From positions 137,343,036 to 137,407,035 of the forward strand of contig NC_085842.1 of NCBI RefSeq assembly GCF_035594765.1: a stretch of DNA of 64,000 bases, in the 5' to 3' direction. Origin of the DNA: Anolis carolinensis (taxonomy: Eukaryota). The notes beneath the pieces were generated by a model. The model made no database searches and was not told where the DNA came from. It was given only the letters and a program-made list of their open reading frames with translations. The position numbers and the translations under genes are program-made. This document shows, one piece after another, positions 3,375 through 55,000 of the stretch (positions within the stretch are counted from its first letter, which is position 1; every line of letters begins with the position of its first letter).

Positions 3375-4008
3375 ATGCGGAGCAGTTTCTGTGGATTAGG
3401 GGCCCTTGTGCTCCTCTTGGGCCTGGTCCGAGTTCGGGGAGAGGTACCAGTGCAAGTGGACTTCCAGCAAGACCAGGTAGATAGAGTATGGCCCCTTTTC
3501 TTCTTTGGCAAGCAGATGGTTAGCAGAGAGCGGCTTTTGAGGATGAAAGCTCCTATCATTTCACAAACATCAGTTATTGATCATTTAGTCAGTTATCTAT
3601 CTATATAGATAGAATCAACAAGCAGATTTGGTAAACAGTCATTATCATGTAGCTAGTATCTAGACAGACAAACAGATTTATTATTACTGCATTATAGTTA
3701 TTATTCTTTTGTTTATTTATACCCAGCTTTTTCTCTCCACAAAGACTCAAAACGGATTTAGTTTCAGCACATTTAGCACACACTCATTGATAATTTAGCT
3801 GACATCTATTTATCTAGACAGATAGATTGATAGAGAAATTTAATCTCCCAGCCGAATTAACAAACATTAATTATGAAAAATTTACTTGGCATCTAATCAA
3901 CCAGCAGATTTTGTAAACAGTCATTAGTGATCATGTAACTGATCTATCCATCTATCTAGATGTAATCATCCAGAAAACATTTATTATTGATCATTTAGCT
4001 GATATCTA

Positions 4009-4042
<34 letters not shown>

Positions 4043-7000
4043 GAGATATAATCCAGCAGATTTAGCAAACATTCATTATTGATCATTTAGCTGATATCTA
4101 TCTAAGGTAAAGGTAAAGGTTTCCCCTTGATATTAAGTCTAACTTTGGGGGATGGTGCCCATCTGCATTTCTATTCCGAAAAGCCGGTGTTGTCCGTAGA
4201 TGCCTCCTAGGTCATGTGGCATGACTGCATGGAGCATTGTTGCATTCCTGCTGAAGCAGTACCTATTGATCTACTACATTTGCATGTTTTCAAACAGCTA
4301 GGTTGGCAGAAGCTGGGGCTGACAATGGGAGTTCACCCTGTCCTGTGGATTCGAGCTGCCGACCTTCTGGTCTGCAAGTTCTGCAGCTCAGCGGTTTAAC
4401 CCGCTGCATATAGATATAAATAGAATCACCCAACAGATTAAGCAAACATTCAATACTGACACTGTAGCAAATTTCTATCTACCAATCTAGAATCATCCAG
4501 CAGATTTAGCAAAGTCATTATTGATCATTTAGCTGATATCTATCTATCTAGAATCATCCAGCTGATTTAACAAACATTCAATACTGACCATTTAGCTGAT
4601 ATCTAAATAGATAAGAGATAATTACCCACCAGATTTAGCAAATATCCATTATTAATCATGTAGCCAATATTTATCTAGATACAATCACCTAGCAGATGTG
4701 GAAAACATTCATTACAAATCATTTAGCATATACAGTATATGTATGTATGTACACACTCACACATATACAGGCAGTCCCCACATTACTAACAAGATAGGTT
4801 CTGTAGGTTTGTTCTTAAGTTGAATTCATATGTAAATCAGAACAGGTAGATTTTTAAGTGTAACTCCATATGTATATGCATGCATGCCTTGGATAGCATA
4901 GGGAAGGGTAAATATCCCCGTGCTGTTTGTTTTGCTTATCTGTCCCTCTGTCCAGATTTCACCTCACTTTCTGTCCCTGTAATAATTGGATTTTGAAAAA
5001 ATTGGCTTGTTGTGGAAACAAGGATTGGTGAGAAAGCTTCAGTACAGACACCTTTTTCTCATGATAACTCTTTCAGGAGTGAATTTCCCTCACCTATATA
5101 TTTCTCTCACTTCCTGTCATCTTTCTTTGTTCGGATCCAGTTCACTGGGCGCTGGTTCAGCATCGGCTTTGCCTCCAATTCCCGCTGGTTCCAGGAGAAG
5201 AAGTCCGTGATGAAGATGTGCTCCACGGTGGTCTCCCCAACGGCTGAAGGGAACCTGGAGGTTATCTCTACCTACCCCAAGTAAGGGCTTTGGACCCTGA
5301 GAGTGCAAAGAGGCAAACGTTATTTTTCAAGACCACTCTTTTGCCCTGAGATTTCTCGCCTTTGGGAAATCTCAAACTCATGACTCCCAAAGGGGGCATT
5401 TTTATAGACCTGTCCATGCAGATTATATGCCCCTCCTTGTCAAATGCAGGTTAAAGCATAATGTCCCATAGCCCTGTGACCTTCTTTGGCCCCCTGCTTA
5501 GTTAACCAGACCCATGTCTTGACCTTTCTTCCAGAGCAGATAAATGCGAGACCCGAAAGAGCCTCTTCGTCCGGACAGAGGAGGCTGGGCGCTTCCGCTA
5601 CACCAGTTCTTGTAAGTTGGAGGTGCTTTGGGTCCTAGTATCCCCTTTATATGTGGCTGGGACCCCATAAAGTGGCTCCCTCCCTTCTTCCCTCTTTCCT
5701 TTCTAATATGCTTCCTTATTTTTCCCCTTCTTTCCTTNNNNNNNNNNNNNNNNNNNNNNNNNNNNNNNNNNNNNNNNNNNNNNNNNNNNNNNNNNNNNNN
5801 NNNNNNNNNNNNNNNNNNNNNNNNNNNNNNNNNNNNNNNNNNNNNNNNNNNNNNNNNNNNNNNNNNNNNNNNNNNNNNNNNNNNNNCATGTACAACAATG
5901 GACTAGATTAATCTTGTGGGTGCTTTCCAATCTTTTAAGAACGCCAATATAAAATTATAGAATCCTCAGAAAAGGCTAAAGGGGCAAAATATTGCCCTCA
6001 TTTCTGTTCCAGATTCAGGGACCACATCTGACGTCCGTGTCGTAGAGACCAACTACAATGAATACGCTTTGCTGGTGGGGCAGAAAGTCAAAGATGGACA
6101 GACATTCACCATGGTCTCTTTGTATGGTGCGTATCCATATCTGGTTGGATGGCCATCTGTCGGGAGGGTTTTGGTTGTGTTTTCCTGCATTGGCAGAAGG
6201 GGATTGGACTAGATTACCCTTGGAGTCCCCCTCCAACTCTACTGGATGGATCTCTATTCACTTTTGGTCTCTATTAAGATGATGATGATGATGTTGATGA
6301 TGATGATACTAAATAGAATATAGACTTCTTCCTTCTTTAGAGATCTTTAAAGAGGGATCAAATGGACATCTTGCAGGAGGGCTTTAGTTGTCGATGATTG
6401 GCGTTGGACTAGATGATGTTTGGGTTTGACCACCTTGGAGTCTCCTTTGGAGGTCTTTCAACAGTAGTTGGATGGCCATCTGTCAGGAGGGCTTTGATTG
6501 TGTCTTCCTGCATTGGCAGAAGGGGGTTGAACTAGATGTCCTTTGGGGAGCCCTTTTGACTCTAGTGGAAAGAGATGACTCACAGACTGGCAGTCTTTCC
6601 TTTTTTGGAGGCCTTTGAACCATGGTTAGATGGGATTGTGTCTTCCTGTATAGAAGAAAAAGGTTGGACTAGATGACCTTTGGAATCCCCTTCAAATGTT
6701 GATGGAATAGGGAGTGTGATGGACTCTCCTTCTTTCGAGGTCTTTAACAGTGGTTGGATGGCCATTTGTCAGGAGGGCTTTGATTATGTCTTCCTACATT
6801 GGCAGACCTAGATGACCTTTGAACTAGATGACCTTTGTGGATCCCATCCACCTCAAATTGAAAAAGGACTACCTTGGAGGACTCTCTTTTGTAGACCTTT
6901 AGGCCATAGTCAGACTAAATGATCTCTGGTTTCCCCTGTAACTTCATGATTTTTGTTATCTCTTAAAGCCGTGGTTCCTTGACCCTTCTTGTCTTTCTCC

Positions 7001-7372
7001 ATCCATTTTCAGGTCGGACCAAATACCTGAGGCCTGAGCTGGTGGAGAAATTCACCCGCTTTGGTTTGGAGCAGGGTTTGAACCCAGAACAGATCCTTAT
7101 CCTGCCCAGGACCGGTGAGAAGATTCTGGGAGTTGTACCCTAAAGGAAAAGTAACTCAGTCAAGCATTAGCCTGAACAGAAGTGAAGGCAATGGGGAATT
7201 TGGGGTGCAAAAGCGTTACCTGGAAGTATATTTGAGATTGTGTGTGTGTGTGGAATAGAGGACCTCATGATGTCCCTTTCGCCATACCCAAGCATTTATT
7301 CATATCCCTCTTTTCTGACATTTTTCTTTCTGTTTTCCTTCCCCAACAGACCTCTGCATGGAGTCTATATAA
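3375..7372 (+). CDS. PTGDS: Lipocalin-type prostaglandin D synthase-like (L-PGDS / chicken CALgamma-like), 185 aa, secreted
   Basis: Exons 3375-3476, 5141-5280, 5535-5611, 6013-6126, 7013-7114, 7350-7372, all GT-AG, intron phases 0,2,1,1,1. Signal peptide, then [26 protein letters not shown]..MKMC (GxW plus the Cys65 equivalent), ETNYNEYA (SCR2), LYGR (SCR3) and a C-terminal Cys. Probable non-coding last exon from ~9411 with AATAAA at 9475. Confidence 0.9.
3560..4730 (+). repeat. Degenerate ~55-60 bp minisatellite in intron 1 of the PTGDS-like gene, interrupted by a SINE
   Basis: Repeated aatcatccagcagatttagcaaacattcattattgatcatttagctgatatctatc units. Confidence 0.75.
4104..4408 (-). mobile_element. 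Sauria SINE
   Basis: (AAAGGT)n tail (ACCTTT repeats on the minus strand), SINE core, and tRNA-derived head at the right end. Confidence 0.85.
6140..6950 (+). repeat. Tandem CR1 LINE 3'-end fragments
   Basis: About five copies of ttggatggccatctgtc-ggagggctttgattgtg-ttcctgcattggcagaagggggttggactagatg. Confidence 0.75.
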
Positions 7373-7461
7373 TAACAGGTGAGTCTACGGCATTCCTCTA
7401 GCAAGGTCCTGAGTGCAAAACTTTCCATTTCCCCAATTTTGGATCTTTTTCAGGCAGATAT

Positions 7462-7835
7462 CATTATTATTATTTGATACACAACAAGATTAGTACACAA
7501 CAAACAAGATCACTATGCTGGCTGTTGCATTGGATCACATGTTGGACACTTCCCATGTGTCTAGGACTATGTGATGTATCGGCGAATAATGCATGCAGAT
7601 CTGAGTAGGATAGCCTTTTGCAGCTGACAGATGGTAATTTTGTCAGCGACAATTGTGTTTAAGGTCAGGCCAAGGTCTTTAGGCACTGCCCCCAGTGCAC
7701 CGATCACTACTGAGACTGACTTTACTGGCATGTCCCAGAGTCTTTGCTGTTCGATCTTCAAATCCTTGTATCGTGTCAGTTTTTCGAGTTGCTTCTCGTC
7801 AATCCTGATGTTGCCTGGGATTGCAACATCAACAT
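7462..7835 (-). mobile_element. Dong/R4-clade non-LTR retrotransposon 3' fragment (restriction-like endonuclease end)
   Basis: Minus ORF: DVAIPGNIRIDEKQLEKLTRYKDLKIE..RLW....VVIGALG....CQLQKAILLRSACIIRRYIT*; flanked by trinucleotide repeats. Confidence 0.8.
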
Positions 7836-8144
7836 CATAATCATCATCATCATTTTTATTATTAGTAGTAGTAGTAGTATTAACTTTATACCCTGCCTTT
7901 TGTCTCATGGGGGCTTATGGTGGCTAACAGCCACACACTCTAATAGCAATTTAAAACAAAGCAAATACATTTAAAAATAAATAAATATTGGTGTGTTAAA
8001 GTACAATTGAAATATAGTAAATGTAATTAAAAGTAAATGTATAAAAAAATACAGCTCTGAACCCCATTATTTGTTTTGAATAGAATAAACCTACTCAATC
8101 TTCCATGTATTCCAAAATGTGGAATATCATGAATATATATACCG

Positions 8145-8185
<41 letters not shown>

Positions 8186-8507
8186 TATACATACATATAC
8201 AATATTGTCCTATATGATATAATGTTATAATATAATATGGTATTTATTATATTTATTATATTATAGTATATTATATTTATTTATGATATATTATTAGAAA
8301 TATAAATGATGTTATATTTATTATAGCCATTATGTTATATTCTTATAATATATGATATTGTATGATGTGCTATTTATTATTAGAAATACTATATATTAAA
8401 ATATTATAGAATAAATATACCATTATGATATATTTCTCCTAATAGTATGTTTATTATATAACATTAAATTATATTATATTGATTATAAATATTATATATT
8501 ATCTTAT

Positions 8508-8816
8508 GGAGCCCCTGGTGGTGCAGCAGATTAAACTGCTGAGCTGCCGAACTTGTTGACTGAAAGGTATACAGTTCGAATCCAGGGAGTGGGGTGAGCT
8601 CCTGCTGTTAGCCCCAGCTTCTGCCAACCTAGCAGTTCAAAAACAGTAAAGGTGAGTAGATCAATAGATACTGCCTTGGCAGGAAGGTAACAGCACACCA
8701 TGCAGTTATGCCAGCCACATCACCTTGGAGGTGTCTATGGACAACACCGGCTCTTAGAAATGGAGATGAGCAACAACTCCCAGAGTCAGACACAACTAGA
8801 CTTAACTTTACCTTTT
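8508..8816 (+). mobile_element. Sauria SINE
   Basis: ggagcccctggtgg head, gttcgaatcc B-box, ACTTTACCTTT tail. Confidence 0.85.
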
Positions 8817-9038
8817 ATTGTCTTATGCTTATATGAGATTGTATGATATATTTATTATTAAAATATATTATATTTATTATAATAAATATTTGTCCTAATT
8901 GTATATGTATTACATGATATTTTATTAATTATAAATATTATTATATTAACATATGGCATATTATATTTATTATAATATTACATGACATATTTATTATAAA
9001 CATATGATATGGTCTAAAACTCAATAATATTAATAATA

Positions 9039-9933: not shown

Positions 9934-12900
9934 ATGGCTCTCCTGCTGCCACCGCTCTTCCTTTTGCTTTGGGCCTTTGCTGCTCAGGCCGATGTTACTA
10001 TTCAACCGGATTTCGACCTCGAAAAGGTAGGAACTACAACTCCCAGGAAGCAAATGTAAGGGATTGCAGTGCCCTGACATCCTTTAAGGCTGAGAGAGTG
10101 TTACTTAGAAAGTTTCCAGGGTTGAGCGGGGATTCAAACCCAGGTCTCAAAGCCATACTGCTATTTCCCATTTTATAAGGGTTTCTCTTAGAAGGATGTA
10201 TTATACCCAAAGGAAGTTTGCCAACGAGTTCCCATGGCTCAATGGGGATTCGAACAAGCTTTGGACGTTCCCAATGGACACACTTTTCAAATGCAGGATA
10301 TATTGTTTCTGCACAAATTCACTCATACACAATTAAAACTAGGGCATGTTCAAATACTCTACTAACCATAGATACCCAGGGTCCTTAAGCCTGATAGTAA
10401 AAGTTTATAAAGCTAAGATTGTACCTATGATATTATACGGGGCAGAAATTTGGGGTCGAAACAAATTACCGATAATGGAACAGACCCAATCAAAATTTCT
10501 AAGACAAATGCTGGGAGTAGGCATAAGGGCCACCTCTGCGGCTGTCAGAGATGAATTAGAAATATACTCCATCAAAGATCTTGCCAAAATCTGGTCTTCA
10601 ATTATTGGTCAAAAATTACAAATTTGGAAAATGGTAGACTCCCAAAATTATTCTTGGCAGAACAAACTAGTGGTCAGATACAAGCTTCCTTGTATTAATA
10701 ATTAATTAAAGACTCTGTATCTACAGCACCGCTGAAGTTGAAAATTTGAACCACATATTACAAAAATCCTGTCTGTGTGAAAAAAATAAGAAACAACACT
10801 TATGGTCTTTTACTTGTACATAAAACGAGCTGGGATACTTCTGCCAAAACCACATTTTACTAGCTGGTTCTAACCCTGTCTTAACAACAAAAAATGCTCT
10901 TTATCTTATAAAACATCTAAAAGGAGATTAGAGTATATTGATCAGATACGGTGTACAAGGACACCTGATGTACATACTTAGGATTAAGTTACACTTGGCT
11001 ACCAGTAGACCACCTCCATTTTTTCCTTCTGTATATGTATATTTAAATTTATATTTTTATTTGGACTAGATGTATACTGTTCATTGTGATTATATTGCGT
11101 ATTTTGATAAGGCCAATTGGCTGATCAATAAAATCGTTTCGTCTTTGAGGTTGGATGGCCATCTGTCAAGAGGGCTCTGATGGTGCTTTTCCTTCCTGGC
11201 AGAAGAGAGTTGGGCTGGCTTGCCCTTTGAGGTCTCTTCTAACTCTAGGACTCTATGATTCTATGACAGACATCTGTTGGGAGGGATTGGATGGTGTCCT
11301 TTCTGGTAAAAGAGGGTTAAGCTGAATGGCCCTCTTCCAACTCTAGGATTCTATGATCCCGAGTCATATAGTCTAATACTCTATGCCCGCTTCCAAGGAG
11401 GGAGGTTAAATAGAGCAGAAACGACCAAATGACATCAAACTGGTCCTTTTTGTCCAGTTTGCAGGGTCCTGGCACTTGATGGCCGGTGCCTCCGACTGTC
11501 CGATATTCCAGAGCATGAAGAACCTGATGACTACCTCCGTGGCCATCATCCGGCCCCTCCCCAATGGAGACATGACCTTTCTGACTGGCTACCCTCTGTA
11601 AGTATCTGGACCTTAGTCCGCTCTGGGTTTCTGTCCGTACTTTAAAACAGACAGCTCCAAAATAAAACTAAACCTTCAATGGACACCTCTGTACCCCATT
11701 TTAATTTTTTTTAGGTCATCTATATTTCTTTTTCAATGGTATAGTGCAACAATATAGTAAATACGATGCAACAGCATAATAAATCAAATCTGTTGCAACA
11801 ATATAGTAAATCAATATAATGTGAGAAAGAAGATTATGAGTGTTTCAATACAAACAAGGCATTTTGCTTGGATGTAGATTCCATTGTCATGCAAAAAATA
11901 AATTGAGAACACCAGAGAAACATGCTAGAATATTTGGGAAATGATTCCTCCGCCTTGGAAGGTTGGAGTGAACCAATAAAAATAATTAAATATTTCAAAA
12001 TGTTTGAAAAAGTACAAAAAAGTTCAAAAGTTTTTAAAAAGTTCAAACGGTAAAAAAATAAACTGAGGACTGGGCAAATATGCAAGAATGTTCAGAGAAT
12101 GATCTTCTGACTTGTAAGGTCAGAGTGAATCAATTTTCAAAAAAAGTTTTAAAAAAACAATTTAAAGTTCAAAAAAGTTTGAACTGCAAAAAGAAAATAC
12201 CCAAGAATATTTTGAGAATGATCAGCCACCTTGTAAGGTCAAAGTGAATCAACTTTCAAAAAGTTCAAACATTTCAAAAGGTACAAAAAATGCATTAAAA
12301 TCATACTGCAAAAATAGTTTGAGGATTCTGGGCAAATATGCAAGACTATTTGGAGAATTATCCTCCAATATGTAAGGTCAAAGTGAACCAATTTTCAAAT
12401 AAATGTCAAAAAATTTCAAAAATAAACTTTAGACTCTGGACAAATATGAAATAATATTTGGAGACTGGCCTTCTGCCTTGCAAGTGCAGGACAAATAAAT
12501 TTCAAACTTTCACATTTGCTTTATTGTTTTTGTTACATATTTTTCTTTTCATTTACAGCCAGGAGGAATGTAAGCCAATAGAGATACATTTTAAAAAGAC
12601 AGAGCAGCCTGGACGCTTCGTTATTGATGGTAGGTGTGCCTCTGAGTATGCACAAAGTGCCTTTATGTAGGATTGCAGTTTAAAGCATTGCTGATACCAC
12701 TGAGCATGTGAAAAGTATCTTTCAAAATGAAGACGTCCATCTCATTTTGAACTGGGCCATCCTTGAAAGTCTCACTAGTGCCTCTGAGCATGTGCAAAGT
12801 GCCTTTCCCCTTCTTGTAAAATACTATAATGATATCCATTATAAGAATTCAAAATCTGCAGTTCCACATCACTGTGAATGCTATGGAACCCTGGGAGATG

Positions 12901-12938
12901 TAGTTTGGTGCTCTTTGGCAAAGAAGGCCCAAGACCAT

Positions 12939-12985
<47 letters not shown>

Positions 12986-15605
12986 ATAATAACAACAATC
13001 GTAAAACTACAACTCCTTGAATTCCATTGCACTGATTTATGGCACATTCAAGTGGAACCAATCATTTCAAGGTGCAGGTGCACCCTTCTTGCCAAAATGC
13101 ATGCTAGGTACAGTAAATGTAGTTGCTTTTTAAAAAGAAGTTACAATTAAATAAGTTAACTTTTTCTTCCTGCTGAGAAAGGCAAACAAGAGATGCGTGT
13201 AATGGAGACTGACTATTCGGAGGTGGCTTACCTTTATACATTCAAGGAGTCCGAAGGAGAGCCGAGCAGCACCACCGTCCAGGTTCTCAGTTACGTATCA
13301 ATGGGGGATGATGGGAGATGTCATCCGGAATAAGAAGGAAAAGGAATTGATTTCTGGGAGATGATGGGAGCCGCCATCCAATGAAAGAGGAAGGGAATTT
13401 TGTTATCTATGGGATTATAGGAGCTGTTATCCAAAAAAGGGGAGAAGCTTTCCCAGCTGGAAGGTGATGGGAGCTGTCATCCAAAAAGAGGGGAATGATC
13501 TCTGGTGGATGATAAGATTTGTCATTTCAAGAAAGAGGAAAGCAGTATTGCTAGTTGGAGGTTGATGGGAGATGTCATCAAAAGAAGAAGAGGGCTGTTT
13601 TGGTAGCTGAGAGATGATGGGAGCTATCATTCAAAAAGGAATTCAGCATTGCTAGCTGGGGAATAATGTGAACTGTCATCCAAAAACATTTTTGAAAATG
13701 GCATTCATAACCTTTTGGAGATCATAATTTTTTTACATAAGCATGATCTTTCAGAGAAGAGCCAAAACCCTTTTGAGTAGAATCTTCTCTTATGATATAC
13801 AATCAGATAAAGATATGCAAGGCAATGGTTTCAGTTGACCTGTTATCTCTGATTTGTTAGGAAAACAGAGATTTTGCCAGTGCATAAAAAACAGCAGTGC
13901 TTCAGAAATGTTTTTCAGTTCCATATACTCTTCCATAAAAAAAACTTGTTTTATAACATGCACTCAAGAGCCAAAAATGAAGCAGACTTTGATTAAAAAA
14001 AACATATTTGGTTTACTCACAACCATTATGTGTTCAGCATACACAGGTACAAAACTTATCAGTCCAGTTTCAGATATGTTTGAGATAATTATCTGTGCCA
14101 TCTGCCAGGACATCTCTTACAGCAAAAACAGCAAGTAAGTGTGTGATATGAGGTCTGAAGTAGTCTGTAGCCTGTCTGCAGTAGTTTGTCAGTCTGCTGT
14201 GATCATGTGATCTTCAGCCCCTTTTATAACTTCTCAGGAACCATAGAGTAAAGGAAGCTGCACACCAGAACATACATACAAACAGTAAGCAACAGGATCA
14301 TCACATGACTAGAGAATGCGTGGAGAAGGTTGTAATTTCTAATAAAAAGGAAGGCAATAATTACTAAGTGGTTATGGGCCCTAATATTGATTTTTCACTG
14401 ACATTCAGCCCGAAATCCAGAACTGACTCCAGAGATATTGGAGAAATTCAAGGCGTACTATCACAGCGTTGGACTCAGTGATGACATGATGGCAATCCTG
14501 CCCAAGTCTGGTGAGTTCAAAGGAGGCTGAGAGAGTGTGATCTCCCCAATGCGTTTCAGTGGCTGATTAAAGATTCGAAACTGGGTCATTTAGTATCATA
14601 GCCCAAACCATGTTGGCTCTCAAGGCAACTATGAAAATATTGGGCTAGAAACCTCATCCTTAGTCCTTATTAGGTTAGACCCCCTTGAATCAGGAAGGGT
14701 CAGAGTTTGAATTCTTCACCAATTACGGTAGCAAATCCCCGAATAACTCACTCCATGGCTCCTTAGTTTTTTTTACTCATTCACCTTTTCCCTTTTTGCT
14801 TTCCAGATGTGTGCTTCAGGGCTCTCAGGTGAGTGGGGAGATAGGAGATCTGTAGTTTCCCAAGATCTGTTCTTGGAGAAGCCTATGAAACATTTGTAGC
14901 AACAGGCAAAAACTGAGGGAGAACAGAAAGGGGAATGTTTTGAAGACAAAGAATTAATCAAATTAAGACCATTGGATGGACTTGATTCGAAAGCATGATC
15001 TGGTGCTTACTCACATATTATTAATACAAGTAATCATATTATTATAAATAATAATTATCATCATTAATAGCAATAATGCAGTATGTATCCTTAATAATTA
15101 TTATTATTACAAATAACAATAATAACGATTATCTTTAAAATTAATACTGATTTGTGTCATTATAAATAATAATATTTACTATTACAAACAATCATAAGGT
15201 TTCTCGTCATAAATATTGTTACAAATAATAGTATTTATATGTTGTCAAAGGTTTTCGTGGCCGCAATCATTGGGTTTCTGTGAGTTTTCTGGGCTGTAAG
15301 GCCATGTTCCAGAAGCATTCTCTCCTGACATTTCGACTGCCAATTGCAACCATTCACACTTATCTCAAACAGACAAGAGCTCTTTCTCTCACCCTGGACC
15401 TTCCACAGATATATAAACCCCACTTGCCTACCTCTGAGGATGCCTGCCATAGATGTGGGCGAAATGTCAGGAGATAATGTTTCTGGGACATGGCCATACA
15501 TCCCGGAAAACTCACAGCAACCCAATAGTATTTATAATTACAAGTAATAATAATATTTATTCTTACAAATAATAATGATATTTATTATTATTTTTCAGTG
15601 GATGA
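9934..15605 (+). CDS. LCN15: Lipocalin-15 / CALbeta-like secreted lipocalin, ~180 aa
   Basis: Exons 9934-10026, 11458-11597, 12559-12629, 13182-13289 (atypical splice sites), 14409-14510, 14807-14828, 15599-15605. Protein MALLLPPLFLLLWAFAAQADVTIQPDFDLEKFAGSWHLMAGASDCPIF...METDYSEVAY...TRNPEL...LPKSDVC; the ASDC motif is typical of LCN15; AATAAA at 15730. Orthology name is tentative. Confidence 0.8.
10320..11140 (+). mobile_element. Decayed non-LTR retrotransposon RT C-terminal fragment
   Basis: ORF 10346-10705 KAKIVPMILYGAEIWG...QSKFLRQMLGV..TSAAVRDEL; ends near AATAAA at ~11128. Confidence 0.65.
11850..12500 (+). repeat. Degenerate ~120 bp tandem repeat in intron 2 of the LCN15-like gene
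   Basis: Recurrent gggcaaatatgcaaga...gagaatgatc...ttgtaaggtcaaagtgaatcaattttcaaa. Confidence 0.7.
13300..13690 (+). repeat. ~60 bp minisatellite in intron 4 of the LCN15-like gene
   Basis: Repeated gatgatgggagctgtcatccaaaaagagg units. Confidence 0.75.
15240..15525. mobile_element. Penelope-like non-autonomous element (inverted pseudo-LTR arms)
   Basis: Left arm gagttttctgggctgtaaggccatgttccagaagc is inverted relative to right arm ttctgggacatggccatacatcccggaaaactc; contains a hammerhead core. Confidence 0.75.
15431..15471 (+). ncRNA. Minimal hammerhead ribozyme (Penelope-derived)
   Basis: cct-CTGAGGA-t-gcctgc-catagat-gtgggc-GAAA-tGTC-agg. Confidence 0.6.
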
Positions 15606-16352: not shown

Positions 16353-17188
16353 ATTTACACTTACATATACACAAAGGGTTGAAAATCAGGGAGACTCTGA
16401 CCATGTGCAGAGTGAGTTCCCAAAACCACAAAGAGGAACAAATTGATTCATTTATAGGATCCTACTCATTGAATGGTCATGGCTCCATGTATTTGTCTTT
16501 TCTTGTCTTGGGATGCATCTACATTGTCAAGTCAATGTAGTTTGACCCTATGTTAACTGCCATGGCTTCAAGAAAATGGGATCCTGGGAGCTGTAGTTTC
16601 CCAAGCTCTCTGGCAAACTCTAATGGACCTCCTAGGAGGTATCTCCTTCTTTGGAGGCCTTTCGAACATCTGTTGGATTGAGGGCTTTAGTTGTGGATCC
16701 CTTGCAGGGCAGAAGGCAATTGGACTAGATGCTCTTTGGGGTCCCCTTCCTGGGTCTTATGACCTTCCAAGGTCCTGTGATTCCTCTCAAGAACAATTTG
16801 TACGAAATGTCAATCTGTCGACCTGTGCTTCAATGAAGGCCCTGTCCCGGCTTATCTTCCTAGCCTGGCATCAACTCTTATCCCTTCTTAGATAAGGGTG
16901 ACCTTTTGAAGTTGACCGCTGGCCAAATGCTTATTGGGTCCGGGGCCAAAGCAAATGCCCAACTCCAAGGGCCCTTTGTGGGGTTGGAGGTCCACTGTGG
17001 CCACTGTAAGGCCAAGAACAATCTGGCCATCTCTGCAGCATTGGCACAGGGTCATCAGATAGGTAAGGAAAGGAAGAGGTCAGCTAAGGACAAGGTCTGG
17101 GCTGAGTATAAAGAGAGGACTTCTTCGTTGAATCAAGTCATTCTTCTTCTGTTCTAAGAACATTCATCCAAGAAAAGGAAGAAGGCCC

Positions 17189-20100
17189 ATGCAAAAGATG
17201 AACATCTGGCTGCTTGGACTGGGCATTGCCCTTCTCTGGACCGTCCATGCCGAGGATGATGGGCCCTCTGATACCGTCAATGAGAAGGTAATGGACCCTG
17301 GCTGGGATGGGATTGGCACCACAATGTTGGGCTTTGCTATGACCCCTCCCTCCCTCCCTCTAACCTCTCCAGGGTCCGAAGGAGATGTACGCTTTGGGGG
17401 TTGCCACCAATGACCCGAAGTTGTTCCAGCACGTGAAAACGATGAACAACATGGCCAAGGTCACCTATGAGGAGCTGGAGGACGGTAGCCTCTCAGTGAC
17501 CGCCATGATCCCACTGTAAGTGTCAAGCAGATCTTCATGGCAGATCTTCCTCTTCCTCCCTTCTCCTTCTCCTTCCTTTTCCCTCTCCTTCTCTTCTTCC
17601 TCAGCCTCCTCCTTTCTCCCTCCTCTCCTCTTCCTTCTCCCTCTCTTTCTGCTCTTTTAACTTCTCGACTTCTCCTCCTCCTCCTTAACTTCTCATCCCT
17701 TCAGAAACTAAAACGGGTTTCCTGGTAAAAATACAGGCCTTTGCTCTGAACCCTCAAAATTCTTCATATCTATTTCAATAATCAGTTGTTTGTGGGTAAA
17801 GTATGTCTGCTTTTAAATGTAGTCTTTAATACCTCACAACCTCTGAGGATGCCTGCCATAGATGTGGGCGAAACGTCAGGAGAGAATGCTTCTGGAACAT
17901 GGCCACACAGCCCGAAAGACATACAACAACCCTGTGATCCCGGCCATGAAAGCCTTCGACGACACGTAGTCTTTAATGCTTAAAATAAAGTCAGGCTTGG
18001 CTAAATGCAATACTATAGGGTATTTCAAACAGATGCACCTAATTTGAAATTGCTAGATCTCTGCAACCACAAACCTCCCACAAATAAAACTCTTACCCCT
18101 TGAAAGGGTGGGACATAGAGATTCACATGATTACTGGTAGATGCCCCTCCGCCCCCTCCTGACCTTCCGAAAGAGAGTGAAAATGTGGCTTTGGGATCAA
18201 GGCTTTGGAGAATAATTGTAGTGCAATAGATAGATATGGAATATTATGTGCAATGACTACTGGAATGGCCCGAATTACTATTGTGGATAGTGTGGTTTTA
18301 ATAGTGAATGTAACATTTATAAATGTTTTAATGCATTTTAAATCCAATTTAAAATATTTATTTTAATTGTACATTGTTTTAAGGCATCAGTGGCACAGCG
18401 GTTTAAACCACTAAGCTGCTGAACTTGCTGACCACAAGGTTGGTGGTTCGAATTTGGGGGGTGGGGTGAGCTCTTGCTGTTAGCTCCAGCTTCTGCCAAC
18501 CTAGCAGTTCAAAAAAATGCAAATGTGAGTAGATCATTAGTTACCACTCCAGCAGGAAGGCAACAGTGCTGTATGCACTCATGCTGGCCACAAGACCTTG
18601 AAGACGTCTACGGACAACGCTGGCTCTTCGGCTTAGAAATGGAGATGAGCACCAACTCCCAGAGTTGGACATGACTAGACTTAATGTCAGGGGAAAACCT
18701 TTACCTTTACCTAAGCTTCTTTGAGTCCCCTTTGGGATTGAGAAGTGCAGGGTATAAATATGGAAAACAAAGAAATACATTCTGCTTTTTTTCTTTTTTC
18801 TTCCTCTTCCTAATTTTTCTCCTCCTCTTCCTTCCATTGTTCCTCCACCTTGACTTCTCTTCTTCCTCTTCCTTTCTTCTTCTTTTGCCTTTTTCCTCCT
18901 CCTTCTCTTCTTTCCGCTCTTCTTCCTTTTCTCCCTTAATTTCTACTCCACCTTTATTCCTCTTTCTTTCTTTCCACCTCTTCCCTTCTACTTCCTTCTT
19001 GACCTCCTCCTCCTCCTCCTGCCTATCTTCTTTTGTCTTCTCCTTTCTTCTCTTCCTTTCCTCCTCCTCTCTTTCTTCTTCTTTCCTCATCTCTTTTTTC
19101 TTCCTTTTCTCTCTCCTCCTCCTGTTCCTTTTCCTCTTCCTTTCTTTCTCTCTTCATCATCTTCTTCTTTTTCTTCTTCTTCCTTGACTTCTTCCTCTTC
19201 TTTCTTCTTTCCCCCTCTTCCTTCCTTCCTCTCTTCCTCCTCCTCCCTCTTCTCTTTCTCTTCTCTCTTCTTATTCTGCGATGTCTCTGCTTTTCTTCTG
19301 CAGGAAAGAACGCTGCAAGTCTTTCACAGAGACCTTCAAGAAGACTGAAGATGGGAAATATGTTAAAATGTGCAGTCAGTATGGGGCAGACTTTTTTTGG
19401 GGGGGGGGGGGTAAACTGGGGCACCCTCCCATTCAGGGACCCCATGGTTTGGGTTCCTCTAGGTCCGGCTCAGAGCGGCCCTTGGTGTTGAGTTTGTTTT
19501 GGGTTTCAGTCAGATCCAAGGCCCTCCTGACCCACTTCTCCCTCTTTTTTCCTCTAGAATGGGGCCAGAAAGTTCTCCATATTATCCATGAGGCGGATGG
19601 ATCCTTCTCCACTGTGGTTGTGACTATAAAGAAGGAGGGCCAGGAACCCAAAGTGATGGTTATACTTTTGGGTAACATTTCCACTCCTTTTCCTAAATTA
19701 ATGCGGAATTAATGCAGTTTGACACCATTTTAATTGCCATGACTCAATGCTACGTGGTTCTGGCAGTGGTGGTTTTGCAAGGTCTATAGCCTTCTCTGTC
19801 AAAGAGGGCCAATCTACAACCTTCACAGTATTGCACCAGGACAGTTAAAGTGGTGCCAAATTGCATTAATTCAACTGTGTAGGCAAGTGATTCCCAAAGT
19901 GGGCGCTACCGCCCCCTAGTGGGCGCTGGAGCGATCCAGGGGGGCGGTGATGGCACCTATTAGGACACGGGGATGGGGGATGGGGCGGGGCCAGGGGAGG
20001 GGCGGGGCCTCTTCCCAAGTGCCGGAGACAGGGCTGAGCACCTGAGGCACCTGTTAGGACACAGGGGGGGGGGGGGGAGCTAGAGGAGTGGGCGTGGCTT

Positions 20101-20634
20101 CTTCCCAAGAGCCTGAGACAGGGCTGAGCTGTATACCTCTCCTGAGAGGTCTTTTAGGACTAAAGGCTGGGGGTAGGGGTGGGGGCAGGGCCTCTTCCCA
20201 AGAGCACGAGACAGGGCTGAGCCTCTGTATACCTCCCCTGAAGCGCTTGTTAGAACATAGGGGCGGGGTATAGAGGTTCAGCCCCGCCAGGCACTTGGTA
20301 AGAGCCCCCGCCCCCTTCCCTAGCCCTGTCCCCTGTGTCCTGGCAGGCACCACAGGACAGGGATAGAAGCTCAGCCCTGTCTCAGAGCTCGTAATTCCAG
20401 CCATCCCAGTCCTGGCCGCCCATTTGTGGCCCCGCCCACCTCCCCTCCCAGCCCTGCATCTTGGACTAGGGGAGAGGCTCAGCTCTGCCCTCTTGAGCAG
20501 GAGCCACGCCCACCCCTCTAAGCTATGCCCCCTTTCCAGGGGGTGCTGAGTCATATTTTTTCTGGAAAGGGTGCGGCAGGCTAAATAAGTTTGGGAACCA
20601 CTGGTGTAGACACATCCCAAGTGGGGGTGTACCA

Positions 20635-20672
<38 letters not shown>

Positions 20673-22060
20673 CCACCACATTATGATGATGATATTGATG
20701 ATGCATGGAATTATAAATTATTTTAAATTATTATGATATAATTATGATTATGTATGGGTTATGAACCGTTTTTGAATTATTATTTATTGACAATGAAAGT
20801 GATTTATTTTTATTGTGTCCGAAGTTTTTTCCCCCTTGCTGCCAGTTAGAAGGGTAGGCTCCGCCCACTTCGTCTCCTAGCAACTGTATGCCATGGTTTC
20901 TTGGTTCGTAAATGATCTTTGTGGCTTTGAAAAATCCCTGGGTATCTGCAAAGTGTTGGATTTCTTCAGCCTTCTTTGTCCACCAGATGTTCTTGAGTTC
21001 TCTGGTCCTTCTTTGGACCTCAGCTTTTGCACTAACAGAGATCTTTTTCTTAGCAGCACAGTTGGTGTCTCTCTGCCATGTTTGCAAGGCTTTCCTTTTG
21101 TTATCAATTAACTGTTGGATCTCTTTATCATTATCGTCAAACCAGTCTTGATGTTTCTTAGTTTGATATCCAATGGTTTATTCGCAGGCCTTGATGATGG
21201 AGGTCTTCAGTTTGTTCCAGTGTTCCTCAACGTTTTGTTGCCATATAATCCAGTTCAGTGTGGATTTTATACAGCTGTGTAGAAGGGGCCTCATATAATC
21301 GAGGTCTAAGCTGATAATATAAGATTATAAATATAATATCTAAAATTACTGTGATATAATAATACAGAACAATATAATCTCTAAAATCAGGATAGTAAAT
21401 AAAGAGCAACACTCTGAAAACAGGGGAATTCCAGAAAGGAAATAACCAGGGTCAGCTACCTCCTCCAAACAAAGGATTCCCCCAGGCAGGAAGCAGCCAG
21501 GCTTTGAAGCTGCAAGGCCATTAAATGCTAATCAAGGTGACTAATGGCAGCATGCATACTTGCTGCACTGAGACTATTCAGTGCTATTTAACCTGGCCAA
21601 CCAAGATCCCCTAGATAGAAAACCCTCAGGTTTTGAAGCTACGAGGCTACTCTGTCCCATTCAACCTGCCCAAGGAAGGATGCCCCTATACAGAAAACGG
21701 CCAGGCTTTGAAGCAGCAAGGCTATTCAGTGCAATTCAAATTGGCCAAAAAAACCATTCCCCTAGAATGCAAGTACCCAGCCTTCCAAGCAGCAAGCCTA
21801 TTCCATTGTATTCCAGCTCACCAAACAAGGATTCGCAGAAGAAGAAAACTGCCAGGCTTTGAGGCTGCAAGGCTATTCACTACTACTGTATTCCATCTGG
21901 CCAACAAATGAGTCCCATAAGCCACAGCAATGCGTGGCCGGGCACAGCTAGTAATATATAATATCAATATAAAATAATAATTATAAAAATAACAACGTGA
22001 TTATAATAATACATAGTATCTTAAAATAATAAAATATAATAATAAATATGACAATTATCT

Positions 22061-22123
<63 letters not shown>

Positions 22124-22760
22124 TACTGCACCTAAAGCAGGCAAACCCATGAATGCACCTGGCTGCAAATGTGATTTCTCTGGTTTTGAAAAACTGATGT
22201 CCAAACCCCCTGGGTTTTCATGGCAGATGTCTTGCAAACAATCTCAAACTCTCAGGACCATCACTCTCTCTTTTCTTTTCTGTAGCCAAAGATCCTAGCA
22301 TTATCCCAGAAGAGAAATTTATGAAGAGGGTAAAGGAATACGGTTTGGCAAAGGAACACACAAAGATCTTCTCCAGCGGGAAAAGTAAGTACTACTTTGG
22401 AAGACGTAGTTCAATCCCATGGATGGCAAGGTGAACTGGGTCGCCCAACCTGACACCAAACTCAGGCATAAAGGCCTGAATGTGAGGTTTTGACATTGCC
22501 TGGACTGGGTCCTTCACCTTGTTTGTGGAGAGTGGTGCCGCTGGGCATACAAAGAGTGCCTGCCTTTCACTCAGAGATATGGATACCATTCTGGATGGAA
22601 GGCAGCTCTTGGCAAAGGCTGGGAAAGACCTTTTTGAAACTATAACTTCCAAGATTCTGGATCCAATTGAGTTGGGCGGGGGATTCTGGGAGTTCTAGTC
22701 CCATAAGATCACTTTTGCTCCTTCTTTCTCTTTGCAGTGTCTTGCGCAGAATCAAACTAG
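17189..22760 (+). CDS. Highly divergent (outlier) secreted lipocalin, 182 aa
   Basis: Exons 17189-17287, 17373-17515, 19304-19374, 19558-19671, 22286-22384, 22738-22760. Sizes (99,143,71,114,99,23) and phases (0,2,1,1,1) match the neighbouring lipocalins; signal peptide; conserved exon-3 and C-terminal Cys; TATAAA at ~17107; probable 3'UTR exon from ~23237 with AATAAA at ~23305. Confidence 0.8.
17831..17965 (+). mobile_element. Penelope 3' fragment with 12-bp TSD
   Basis: GTAGTCTTTAAT is duplicated at 17819-17830 and 17966-17977. Confidence 0.8.
17840..17880 (+). ncRNA. Minimal hammerhead ribozyme, intact core (Penelope-derived)
   Basis: Stem I cct/agg; CUGAGGA 17843-17849; stem II gcctgc/gtgggc; GAAAC-GUC cleavage triplet ending at 17877. 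Confidence 0.75.
18383..18712 (+). mobile_element. Sauria SINE
   Basis: tRNA-like head, conserved core, ACCTTT tail. Confidence 0.85.
18780..19300 (+). repeat. ~520 bp polypyrimidine (CT-rich) low-complexity tract
   Basis: Almost exclusively C/T, ending at the exon-3 acceptor of lipocalin gene 3. Confidence 0.9.
19885..20603. mobile_element. GC-rich non-autonomous hAT transposon
   Basis: TIRs (c/a)agtgattcccaaa ... tttgggaaccactg; imperfect 8-bp TSD gtgtaggc/gtgtagac; subterminal gagacagggctgagc repeats in both orientations. Confidence 0.7.
20870..21226 (-). mobile_element. RTE (BovB-like) LINE fragment
   Basis: Minus ORF KAEVQRRTRELKNIWWTKKAEEIQHFAD..GFFKATKIIYEPRNHG. Confidence 0.75.
21227..21951 (+). 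mobile_element. Non-autonomous Helitron (3' part) carrying Penelope-derived repeats
   Basis: 3' hairpin gccac-agcaatgc-gtggc (21921-21938) followed by CTAG (21948-21951). Confidence 0.65.
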
Positions 22761-23810
22761 GTGAGTTTGAGCAAATTTGGACTGGGATTTGAGGACATGA
22801 ATTTGGGGTCATTTGGGGACAGGAAAAAACTAAAATGAGCAGCTGTCAATCAGCCTAAATCCATCAATGAAGGAAAGTATTATGAGATAGCAGCAATTGG
22901 CTTGAGACTGTAACGTCACCAGCACATTTCCTCCCCAAATTAGATATTTAATGCAATGTCTAGGGACTTTTGAAAACAGCTATGGAAGACTGGGAGTTGT
23001 AGTTTGCCGCTCCACAAAGCTTGGAAAATTACAACTCCCAGGATGCCATCACATTCGTCCATTTTGGTTAAAGTGGCATCAAATTGCATTAATTTGACCG
23101 TGTAGGCGCACTCAGAGAAGGTGGTGGCCCTTGGAAAACTGCAGATCCTTGGATGCCATTGTACTGAGCCATGGCGGTCAAAAGTGGCCTCAAAGTACAA
23201 CTTCCTATGCTGACTTTGCCGACTTCCTCTTCCATAGGTTTCTTCCAAAGGTCTGGAAGATGGAATCCTTGTGGCCTGAAGGGAATGCTCCATCTAATTC
23301 TATTAATAAACCAGATCCAGAAACTACACTTGATGTCTGTTGTTTGGGTCGGGGGAACTACAACTCCCAAAGTGAGAAAAGTCAAAAGAACCTTTTCTGA
23401 GGGTCAACCTCTTGGCTTTAACCCAGTAACACAAGCATGATAAGAGCCAAGATGACTAAACTGAGAATTTTGTACTTGGAACACATCAACAGAAGACAGG
23501 ACACACTAGAAAAGTATTAATACTTGGTAAGGAAAAGGACAGTAGGAAAAGAGGGCAGGCCTGTAGCCAGGAGAGGTTTTAAGGGTTCAACCCCCCCCCC
23601 AACCCCAAAATGTTTCAGGTTAAAAAAACCAGGTTTAATCAAGAATTTTAACAGGTTAATCCATGAGTAAACCAGTTTTTTTTTAAAAAAAACATGAAAC
23701 ATTTTGGGGGGAAATGTTGAACCCTTCAAACCCCCTTCTGGCTACAGGCCTGAAAATGGGAGCTGGGCCTGTTTTGCCAGGAGAAAGAGAAGATAGGACA
23801 TGACAGCCAT

Positions 23811-52000: not shown

Positions 52001-55000
52001 CATCCTGCAATTCCAGTCCATAGAAAACTAACATGCCACAGAGAAGAGTGAGCTAAGCCCCTTCTCCCTGGCATCTATTTTTTTCCTATTCATGTGGAAA
52101 TGTTTAGTGATGAGGCAAGTAAGTCTATTCATGCATATAGTATTTTTAAGGCTTATTAGGGTGGTAGGCAGGGCTTATTTATTAAGGTAAAGAGCTCATA
52201 GACAATTCTAAAGGGAAAAATTTGATTCATATATTATTTAGTTCAATAGCTCCCTTTCTTATTTTCCTCCATTTTATCTATACTCTGCCTGTTTCACAAA
52301 ATTGGGATTTAAGAAGGCTTACAGTTTAAATAAGTCTAATTTCTGAATGGAATGTTATTTCTCATATTGATACTCATATTTTTCCAGTAGAAGAGGGGAA
52401 AAAACATTAGCAAATGAACATGGCTATAATTTATTTCCTCAGTTCACTATTTATTTTCTGACTTTAAGCAAACATCTGTTTTTAAACAGGTCTGGCCATA
52501 GCAGAATGACAAAGGCTGTAGATGCATTTAGTAAGTAAAATTCCAGGGAATAAATTCCTCAGAAATATTTATGATATTTACACATTTCATTGTGCCCAGC
52601 CACAGTCAGCTGTGATTTCTTCCTGCAAAACTTACTGAGCGAGATTCTTAAGAGTTACAAGAGATCTACTTTATTTCCTTTCTGCAGATATTAACACTTT
52701 CCCTGCATTGTAAATGCTGCTGCTGCTGTTTTTGTTTTTGTTGTTGTTGTGTGTGTGTCTTTGAGTTATGCTTGACCTATGGCGACCCTAAGGAAGAGCT
52801 ATCATAAGCCAAGATTTGTTTAGAGGAACTTTGCCATAGCTTTCTTCTGTGGCTGGAAGAGTGTGTGACTTGTCAAGGCTACTCGGTGGATTTTATGGCT
52901 AAGTTGGGATTCAAATCCCAGTCCCTAGCAGTCCCAGTCTAATATTTAGACAACTACACCATGTTTGTTTTCATTTCTTTTTAGTATCAGGACATAGTGA
53001 AATATATTTATTTTTAATATCAGGACAAACTTCTCCCCATGGAACAGAAATTATTTTTGGTTCTCTCAGACAATGGTTTCCTTAGAAGTTTTTTTTGCTC
53101 AGTGAATGCAGACTGTCATCTTAGTATGAGAACAGTTGCAGTTTTTCCATTGTGGTGATGTGTGATGACTCATGGGCCATGTAGTCTCGTTCCTAGTATT
53201 ATTGTGGCAGATGAAGAGGAAAACTTGGGTTTCCCACCGTTTCAGCCAGAATTGGAGCCCTTGCACCTGCAGGATATCTGCCCTCCAGAAGCCAGCCAAA
53301 CAAGCCTTGAGCAGAAATCTCCCCCATTTTCTCGCCAAGATTATTATAATCAACAAAGAGGCGCTCGCGAGGCGACTCGCCGGAGCGCCAGGATCGCTGC
53401 CAGACAATTAGATGATTAAGTCTGTTTCCCTTGGGAAACTTTAGGGAGTCATGCATCTGGACACAGAATGGCTTTCGGTTCTTGTTCCCCAGAGAAAGTG
53501 TTCTTTGGCGGGAAAACGAGATCCTATTTAGGTGTTTGCCCTCGTAGGAAACCTTGCGGAGTCAATTCGTCAGCTCGTGGAGTGAGATCGTGTGTAGACT
53601 TCTACTCCAGTTCCCAGCTCTTGAATCAAGTTCCCAGCCCTGCCTTGTTCCACGGATTTCTATGGACTCAGTTCTTGTTCCACAATTGCCTTGCTTCAAG
53701 TTGGACCTTGTTACGTCTCAAGTCTTGCCTTGCCTTGCGTTTTAACCACGGACCTTGCTTCTCGGATTCAAGCCTTGTTTTCTATTCCTTCGGATTTACC
53801 TTAAGCCTCTAAGACTATGGACAGTTCCCCACACTATTGTTTGCCAAATAGTGTGTGTTTCGGTGAAGTGGATTATAACTTTGGGCTTTAATATCATATA
53901 TTGGACATTGTTTTCCTGGACTATAATTGACCTTTCCTGAAAGGTCTATTTCTGAACTATATTCTACACTTGTTTTTATTGACTTTATATATTCCTTTAA
54001 TAAAGATATTAGATAGAATCTGGCCTCTGCGCATGGTTATTGGTGCTCTGCAGCCTGGGTCCTGACAGTTTGACTCCGCCACCCTTAAGCACCAATTAAT
54101 CTAGGCCAGAATGTCCACTGGAACCGGGGCGGAAGCCCAACCACTCAGCTATACCATCTCCAAGGATGAAGTGGACAGAATCCGTGATATGCTCCACACG
54201 CAGGAGGGAGAAATACGGGGCTTGAAGGAACGCGGAACCCGTCTCCCTGCCCTGGCGTTACCAACCAAGTTTTCCGGGGAAGCTTCCAAGGTTCATGTTT
54301 TCCGTCGCCAGTGCCAGGCATACCTAGAAGCCCGTCAGGCCGAGTTTCCTCAAGAAGACATCAAGGTAGCGTGGATCTACAGTCTCCTAGACGGGCCAGC
54401 GGCCAATTGGGCGACGGCGCTATTTGATGAAGCCTCCCCACACCTAAGTTCCGCGCAAAACTTCCTGGATCACCTTAAGGCGACTTGGGGGATCGAGGAC
54501 AATTTAGAGGCGGCCGGCCACAAACTCCGGCGCCTTCTTCAAGGGGACAGGCCCATGTCCCAGTCCATAGCCGAGTTCCGAGTGCTGGCCCAAAACACCG
54601 GCTGGAATGACGTAGCCCTCAGGGGACAGTTTCGGGAGGGTCTCAACATCGAGATGTTGGAAGAAATCTCCAAGGTGGATCCCCCAAACTCTCTTGAGAG
54701 ACTTATTGACCAATGTTTACGAGCCGAAGTCATGCTTGCCAACAGAAAACAGTGGCTCTGAGGCCAGAGTGGAAGAGCAGGAGTAAAACCTCCCGCTCCC
54801 GCCGGCATCCAACCACGTCCAATGTGGAGACCCCCGCCACCAGGCCCATACCCCAGAGGAAGCGAGGAGGTGCCGATGCAATTGGGCAATGTGCGCCCCA
54901 GATTAGATGTTGCCGAGAAGGCCCGCCGCCAACGTTTAAACCTCTGTTGGTACTGCGGGAACGGGGGCCACTTTGCCAGAGAGTGTCCAGCCAAAGGAAA

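Follow-up and report, generated by a model that had tools for sequence, protein, structure and literature searches.

The gene at 17189..22760 on the forward strand of a 64-kb window of the Anolis carolinensis genome (contig NC_085842.1; the window is the whole stretch of DNA analysed, and all coordinates refer to it) encodes a lipocalin that lacks the three signature motifs of its family, carries apolar residues at four of the five sites through which bird Ex-FABP contacts its ligands, and has changed rapidly between two anole species. On balance, the evidence favours the reading that this gene, termed the target in the following, is the anole lipocalin of the Ex-FABP locus and that its product is a secreted barrel, the apolar pocket of which would carry a lipid or a hydrophobic small molecule and not a siderophore. 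What is unusual here are the motifs, the pocket and the rate of change; the protein family and the locus are known, and a relative has already been annotated. Judged by titles and the opening lines of abstracts, no paper dealt with the target gene or with its annotated A. sagrei relative in a literature that excluded the majority of subscription journals, and the accessible part of bioRxiv 10.1101/2025.11.07.687289 makes no mention of a lipocalin.

Gene structure and loss of the signature motifs

Two features of kernel lipocalins, the Gly-x-Trp of structurally conserved region 1 (SCR1) and the Thr-Asp-Tyr of SCR2, are missing from the target: neither GxW nor T[DN]Y occurs anywhere in the protein. 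Moreover, SCR3 reads LLAK, its arginine site being occupied by Lys144, which is not Arg but still basic. All three motifs are kept in each of the nine other lipocalins examined (the products of the neighbouring genes A and B as well as P0002 and P0004-P0009), in line with a first-pass annotation of this DNA that had singled out the target for the loss. The SCR1 site is encoded by exon 2 (17373..17515, +; strands A-C), where Met38 takes the position of the Trp; the other two AG sites nearby, tried as alternative acceptors of intron 1, do not restore it. The same three motifs are absent from P0003, a protein of Anolis sagrei automatically annotated in RefSeq as 'extracellular fatty acid-binding protein-like', which is identical to the target in 123 of 185 columns (66% over the whole length) and shares its extra cysteine. 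Hence, the losses are not assembly errors. The two proteins differ at the SCR1 Trp site, with Met in the target and Gly in A. sagrei, and agree in the Lys at the basic SCR3 site.

Among ten distant lipocalin structures, only the Gly and Trp of SCR1 are strictly identical, and the Trp packs on the basic residue of SCR3 (PMC2254393, available part). Release of this contact in the anole protein is supported. The first-pass annotation had proposed a coupled loss of Trp and Arg and a remodelled barrel base; the Trp is indeed gone, but a basic Lys remains at the Arg site, so the coupling holds only in part, and the base may have been repacked. In the proposed mechanism, the disulfide between Cys85 and Cys178 and the hydrophobic strands G and H would hold the barrel together without the Trp. 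By description in the same partial source, tick RaHBP2 (1QFT) likewise combines the lipocalin fold with the absence of the SCR1 Gly and Trp (PMC2254393), yet it is an arthropod protein with Tyr at the Trp site and a hydrophilic ligand.

Cysteines are found at residues 85, 104 and 178 of the target, of which Cys85 (exon 3, 19304..19374, +; strands D-E) and Cys178 (exon 6) align with the conserved lipocalin disulfide pair. Cys104, also encoded by exon 3 and conserved in A. sagrei, is the extra cysteine that had been pointed out before. Beside it, at the strand E-F turn, both anoles retain Trp106 (19558-19566), which by visual comparison lies close to the position of human L-PGDS Trp112, a residue for which a W112F mutant exists.

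The six exons splice to an open reading frame of 549 nt encoding 182 residues, identical to the translation of the first-pass annotation, and all five introns are bounded by GT..AG. Their phases (0,2,1,1,1) equal those of both neighbouring lipocalin genes and represent a pattern generally found in the lipocalin family, so the target has both the exon-intron pattern of chordate lipocalins and their disulfide pair linking barrel and C-terminus. A TATA box (TATAAA, 17107..17112, +) lies 82 nt before the ATG. Exon 1 (17189..17287, +) provides the start codon, a likely signal peptide (about residues 1-21, by eye) and an acidic N-terminus; the hydrophobic N-terminal segment, likewise recognised by eye, is aligned with those of genes A and B, suggesting that the product is secreted. 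Exon 5 (22286..22384, +) contributes Lys144 of SCR3, the main helix and the last strand, while exon 6 (22738..22760, +) comprises the C-terminal Cys178 and the stop codon and is directly followed by a splice donor. From the sequence alone, a probable non-coding exon 7 extends over 23238..23330 (+; 3' end approximate) and includes the AATAAA at 23305; the TATA box and the poly(A) signal had both been predicted, the latter lying beyond the coding span.

Four public runs, presumed to be RNA (X4, X7, X8 and X10), were compared as assembled contigs over 17040-17545. One X4 contig terminates at the exon-1 donor and another skips exactly the 85-nt intron 1 (17288..17372, +; GT..AG), its short side of 25 letters being below the 31-letter bar, and continues for about 255 letters, the first 30 of which are exon 3. 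As in X4, an X8 contig continues past exon 2 with sequence that is identical to exon 3. The X4 and X8 contigs thereby support the first two junctions, and junctions 3-5 are supported by colinearity with the A. sagrei protein. X7 yielded an unspliced piece of the target and X10 no contig over this interval. Contig depth amounts to 7,100-8,900 in X4 versus 4.4 in X8; because contig depth is a poor measure of expression, these values do no more than hint at strong expression in one sample. At position 17411 the window has T, while all three covering runs have C, a synonymous difference. Two ARE-like and one ERE-like element (androgen- and estrogen-response elements) in the target promoter, with two mismatches each, occur at about the background rate of the window and were dismissed. 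Further copies of the target were sought in the 64-kb window, and none was found there.

Ligand pocket, ancestry and predicted fold

The change in the pocket says more about function than the loss of the motifs. Ex-FABP contacts siderophores through Lys82, Arg101 and Arg112 and lysophosphatidic acid (LPA) through Tyr50, Lys82, Arg112 and Tyr114 (PMC6584246), and its Arg101Ala/Arg112Ala mutant has lost the inhibition of Escherichia coli growth (PMC9363672), according to the available parts of both sources. At the sites of residues 50, 82, 101, 112 and 114, the target has Ala77, encoded by exon 2, and Lys109, Ile128, Ile140 and Leu142, encoded by exon 4 (19558..19671, +; strands F-H), the exon from which TDY is absent; the A. 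sagrei protein has Ala, Lys, Leu, Ile and Leu. Only the Lys82 equivalent is therefore kept in both anoles (1/5), the other four sites being apolar and both arginines gone, so that neither the basic triad of siderocalins (1/3) nor the set of LPA contacts (1/4) is retained. The Arg101 and Arg112 sites are anchored in the alignment by identical flanking residues. As judged from the aligned residues, a hydrophobic pocket is predicted, one that could not serve a siderocalin of the bird type, and there is good reason to expect that it carries a hydrophobic ligand in a tissue secretion and not a siderophore. The replacement of the two key arginines speaks against siderophores, which had been listed among the conceivable ligands. 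The pocket would accordingly have shifted from basic to apolar, and its cargo may be a fatty acid, a lipid or a semiochemical. The difference in the arginine pair may reflect either a loss in the anole lineage or a gain on the bird side.

With regard to ancestry, the target is probably the anole counterpart of Ex-FABP, derived from the Ex-FABP locus without being a plain copy, on account of its position in the cluster, its best matches among solved sequences and the RefSeq name of its relative. Genes A and B lie upstream on the same strand, making the target the third member of a PTGDS-like, LCN15-like and target cluster, and chicken ExFABP adjoins LCN15-like and PGDS genes, a statement on adjacency and not on exact order (PMC4256799, available part). 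Among PDB sequences, the A. sagrei relative matches Q83 best (E 1.4e-9), followed by Ex-FABP (2.7e-6) and the next family (1.6e-5), with PTGDS at 0.015; human LCN15 does not appear in its 27 PDB matches. A profile of the same protein and target exons 2-5 increased this lead, giving 2.1e-10 for Q83 and 8.5e-8 for Ex-FABP versus 1.1e-4 for the next match, LCN15 again being absent from 40 PDB matches. The likeness of the target to its two neighbours is not due to chance, given blastp E values of 7e-13 and 9e-10 and shuffle Z scores of 17.5 and 14.2, neither score being reached by any of 1000 shuffles.

Compared with chicken Ex-FABP (Ch21, p20K; PDB 3sao) and quail Q83 (1jzu), the anole protein shares the gene trio, the predicted fold, including a loop-1 helix, the disulfide cysteines and Lys82. 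On the other hand, identity is about 23%, the SCR1 Trp, TDY and SCR3 Arg of the bird proteins are absent, Tyr50, Arg101, Arg112 and Tyr114 are replaced, and the anole protein has the extra cysteine. The first-pass annotation had considered that the gene might prove to be a plain, conserved Ex-FABP orthologue; position and best matches do point to Ex-FABP, but the gene is neither conserved nor a plain copy. With its LCN15 and L-PGDS neighbours, the target has in common the intron phases, 24-29% identity and, for the model of its A. sagrei relative, fold Z scores of 17-19, whereas the neighbours keep the three motifs as well as diagnostic cysteines of their own, and evolution is much slower in the LCN15-like gene.

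The A. sagrei protein was the one close relative found, and the searches returned none outside Anolis, in keeping with the lineage-specific origin suggested earlier. In a full HMMER search of 1.84 billion representatives, exon 2 matched only this protein (E 9e-6); since the 47-residue query is weak, the single match is no proof of anole restriction. A word-index search with exon 2 alone gave 0/6 candidates, and the target's own protein was absent from 8 matches out of 670 candidates, though the search profile scores the target at 158 bits. A three-sequence lipocalin profile scores the target at 54 bits, and none of five target exons, scanned separately, matched Pfam PF00061. The A. sagrei relative reaches 52.6 bits on PF00061 against a cut-off of 23; hence, the lineage is recognised by profile-based annotation, even if searches for motif patterns would overlook it, and the earlier concern that annotation could miss the gene is not supported, the relative being already named 'Ex-FABP-like' in RefSeq. 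Matches of single exons to EF-hand, omega-toxin, DUF2767 and microprotein families (E 0.01-0.15, all below the cut-off) and the one PDB match of exon 2 (E 0.28) were attributed to chance.

The fold was predicted with AlphaFold2 for the A. sagrei relative from a 12-row alignment. In the model, a short helix is followed by eight strands, the main helix and a final short strand, with a mean predicted local distance difference test (pLDDT) score of 73.8 and a predicted template modelling (pTM) score of 0.71, and the structure-search matches listed for it are lipocalins only. It superimposes on alpha-1-microglobulin with Z 19.5 (root-mean-square deviation 2.3, 153 aligned residues), on L-PGDS with Z 19.0 and on Ex-FABP with Z 18.3 (2.5, 144 aligned residues), the last showing 23% identity, the highest of 50 rows. 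The fold alone does not decide the subfamily. An Atlas model of the same protein has a TM score of 0.73 to PTGDS, and a homodimer prediction scored 0.04, which is evidence neither way. The eight-stranded barrel expected of AlphaFold and structure search in the first-pass annotation was thus obtained for the relative, and the target protein is likewise predicted to be a secreted eight-stranded lipocalin barrel.

Rate of evolution and rival explanations

Within the same species pair, the mature target protein is identical at 105 of 157 residues and that of the LCN15-like neighbour at 148 of 159, corresponding to Poisson distances of 0.40 and 0.07, an about six-fold difference (Fisher p 3e-9). 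Gene B was counted only to residue 178 in the identity counts and in the tree, and the contrast assumes that the A. sagrei relative is a one-to-one orthologue. Loop 1 is most changed (6 of 14 residues identical) and strand H least (7/8), with strand D at 7/11, and several small indels separate the two proteins. In an 11-row tree, built without Ex-FABP and without an outgroup, the anole pair forms one group on a long branch of 1.96. The target appears to be fast evolving, as had been proposed, on the basis of a protein distance that is compatible with positive as well as with relaxed selection. The rapid turnover of the loop above the pocket could retune contacts to ligands or receptors, and the protein would be made in large amounts by a single tissue, probably for release in an exocrine or reproductive secretion. 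By analogy, a part in chemical signalling or reproduction is plausible, given the rate, the depth hint and the precedents of snake gland lipocalins and LESP.

Several observations weigh against an Ex-FABP-derived carrier of hydrophobic ligands. The target matches squamate LCN15-like proteins at 21-29% identity, with a best E of 4e-14 (28%), and as Ex-FABP is absent from the tree, orthology to it rests on position and on best matches at 23% identity. The AlphaFold2 model represents the A. sagrei relative and not the target, its residues 1-31 have pLDDT below 50, and the fold scores of alpha-1-microglobulin and L-PGDS exceed that of Ex-FABP. The pocket residues were mapped by sequence alignment and not by superposition, the Ex-FABP numbering being reproduced by counting. 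If the A. sagrei relative were a paralogue, the rate contrast would be inflated, and the signal peptide, identical at 18 of 21 residues, is not significantly more conserved than the mature part (105/157; p 0.13). Finally, bird Ex-FABP binds unsaturated fatty acids (PMC4256799, available part), so lipid carriage may be ancestral and not new.

In a bolder scenario, which is regarded as doubtful, anoles would have co-opted a siderocalin gene of innate immunity to make an abundant glandular carrier of pheromones or lipids that is under positive selection and has a rebuilt pocket and a rebuilt closed barrel end. Rather little credit is given to the view that the target is a fast-evolving LCN15 duplicate or stems from a separate squamate gland lipocalin lineage (LESP, snake oral-gland) in the same slot, which would still make it a secreted carrier. 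The matches to squamate LCN15-like proteins and the failure of the fold scores to single out Ex-FABP fit this view, as does the high expression of squamate gland lipocalins: by description, in sources available in part, these proteins are tied to glands or ducts, those of snake venom glands make up as much as 29% of the reads (PMC4999846), and an androgen-regulated epididymal lipocalin family of lizards is cited under the name LESP. However, human LCN15 is absent from the PDB matches of both queries (0/27 and 0/40) while Q83 and Ex-FABP lead, the LCN15-type cysteine of loop 1 is absent from the target, and the tree places the anole pair outside the group of gene A and the LCN15-like rows, a weak argument in view of the long branch and the lacking outgroup.

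It is very improbable that the target still is an antibacterial acute-phase siderocalin like bird Ex-FABP that operates via other basic residues: the Lys82 equivalent in both anoles, the 24 Lys among 182 residues and the locus shared with an infection-induced chicken gene are opposed by the Ile or Leu at both Arg sites in both species and by the inactivity of the Arg101Ala/Arg112Ala mutant of Ex-FABP. Similarly improbable is an action mainly via the surface, as a protein signal or by covalent linkage through Cys104 to another copy of itself or to a partner, the pocket having degenerated in part. Cys104 and the nearby Trp106 were kept while one third of the mature protein changed, and in the model of the relative they lie at the strand E-F turn, which is at the open end of lipocalin barrels; the uniformly apolar inward residues, on the contrary, fit a working hydrophobic pocket, and the window shows no evident gene for a partner. 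Least probable of all is drift under relaxed selection, with the motif loss as early decay. The roughly six-fold higher protein distance, the differing Trp site and the small indels would suit such decay, but the open frame, the three cysteines and strands D and H are kept in two species, spliced contigs come from two studies, and the barrel model is confident.

The lipocalin cluster, its surroundings and implications

Gene A (3375..7372, +) is an intact PTGDS-like lipocalin gene that keeps all three motifs, its exon 2 matching L-PGDS with E 2e-14. In the part at 5141-5280 it keeps a Cys aligned with a Cys of mouse L-PGDS, which we take to be the position of the catalytic Cys65, and owing to this residue the product may be an active prostaglandin D synthase. 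Gene B (9934..15605, +; last exon by eye) is an intact LCN15-like gene, 93% identical to an A. sagrei lipocalin-15-like protein, the best solved relative of which is human LCN15 (E 1e-31). Its exon 4 (13182-13289) has weak splice sites, with the acceptor after GAGAAAG and GTTACG as donor, and is supported by the A. sagrei protein.

Downstream of the target follow a methyltransferase gene and an RRM/RS gene, recognised by Pfam, which together with the next gene are presumably METTL23, SRSF2 and MFSD11. The lipocalin trio thus abuts METTL23-SRSF2-MFSD11-like genes (3375-40470), a group that in chicken and human, we assume, neighbours JMJD6 on a different chromosome. The A. sagrei relative of the target is encoded on a 304-Mb contig, and the LCN15-like genes of five other lizards lie on contigs of 12-98 Mb. 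Relocation of the lipocalin cluster in anoles is possible. An intron of the MFSD11-like gene harbours a retrotransposon of Ty3/gypsy order with long terminal repeats (LTRs) at 53160-59512. Its two LTRs are 99-100% alike over the compared 300-nt blocks, the 3' LTR containing a 72-nt duplication. The gag frame spans 218 codons, and the pol frame, open over 1249 codons, has matches to protease, reverse transcriptase, RNase H, integrase and SH3; the element is likely a recent insertion.

A vertebrate protein that is devoid of the SCR1 Gly and Trp in two species and is still modelled as a barrel constitutes a natural test of the purpose of the Trp-SCR3 contact. The name 'Ex-FABP-like' should not transfer siderocalin function to lizards, and whether siderophore binding was gained in birds or lost in anoles becomes testable. 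If the transcript turns out to be gland-specific, the target would be a candidate gene, in a lizard genus used as a model, for chemical signalling or for a reproductive secretion. Should co-option hold true, the gene would exemplify a vertebrate lipocalin able to fold in the absence of all three motifs, and it would give a handle on chemical signalling in lizards deemed visual.

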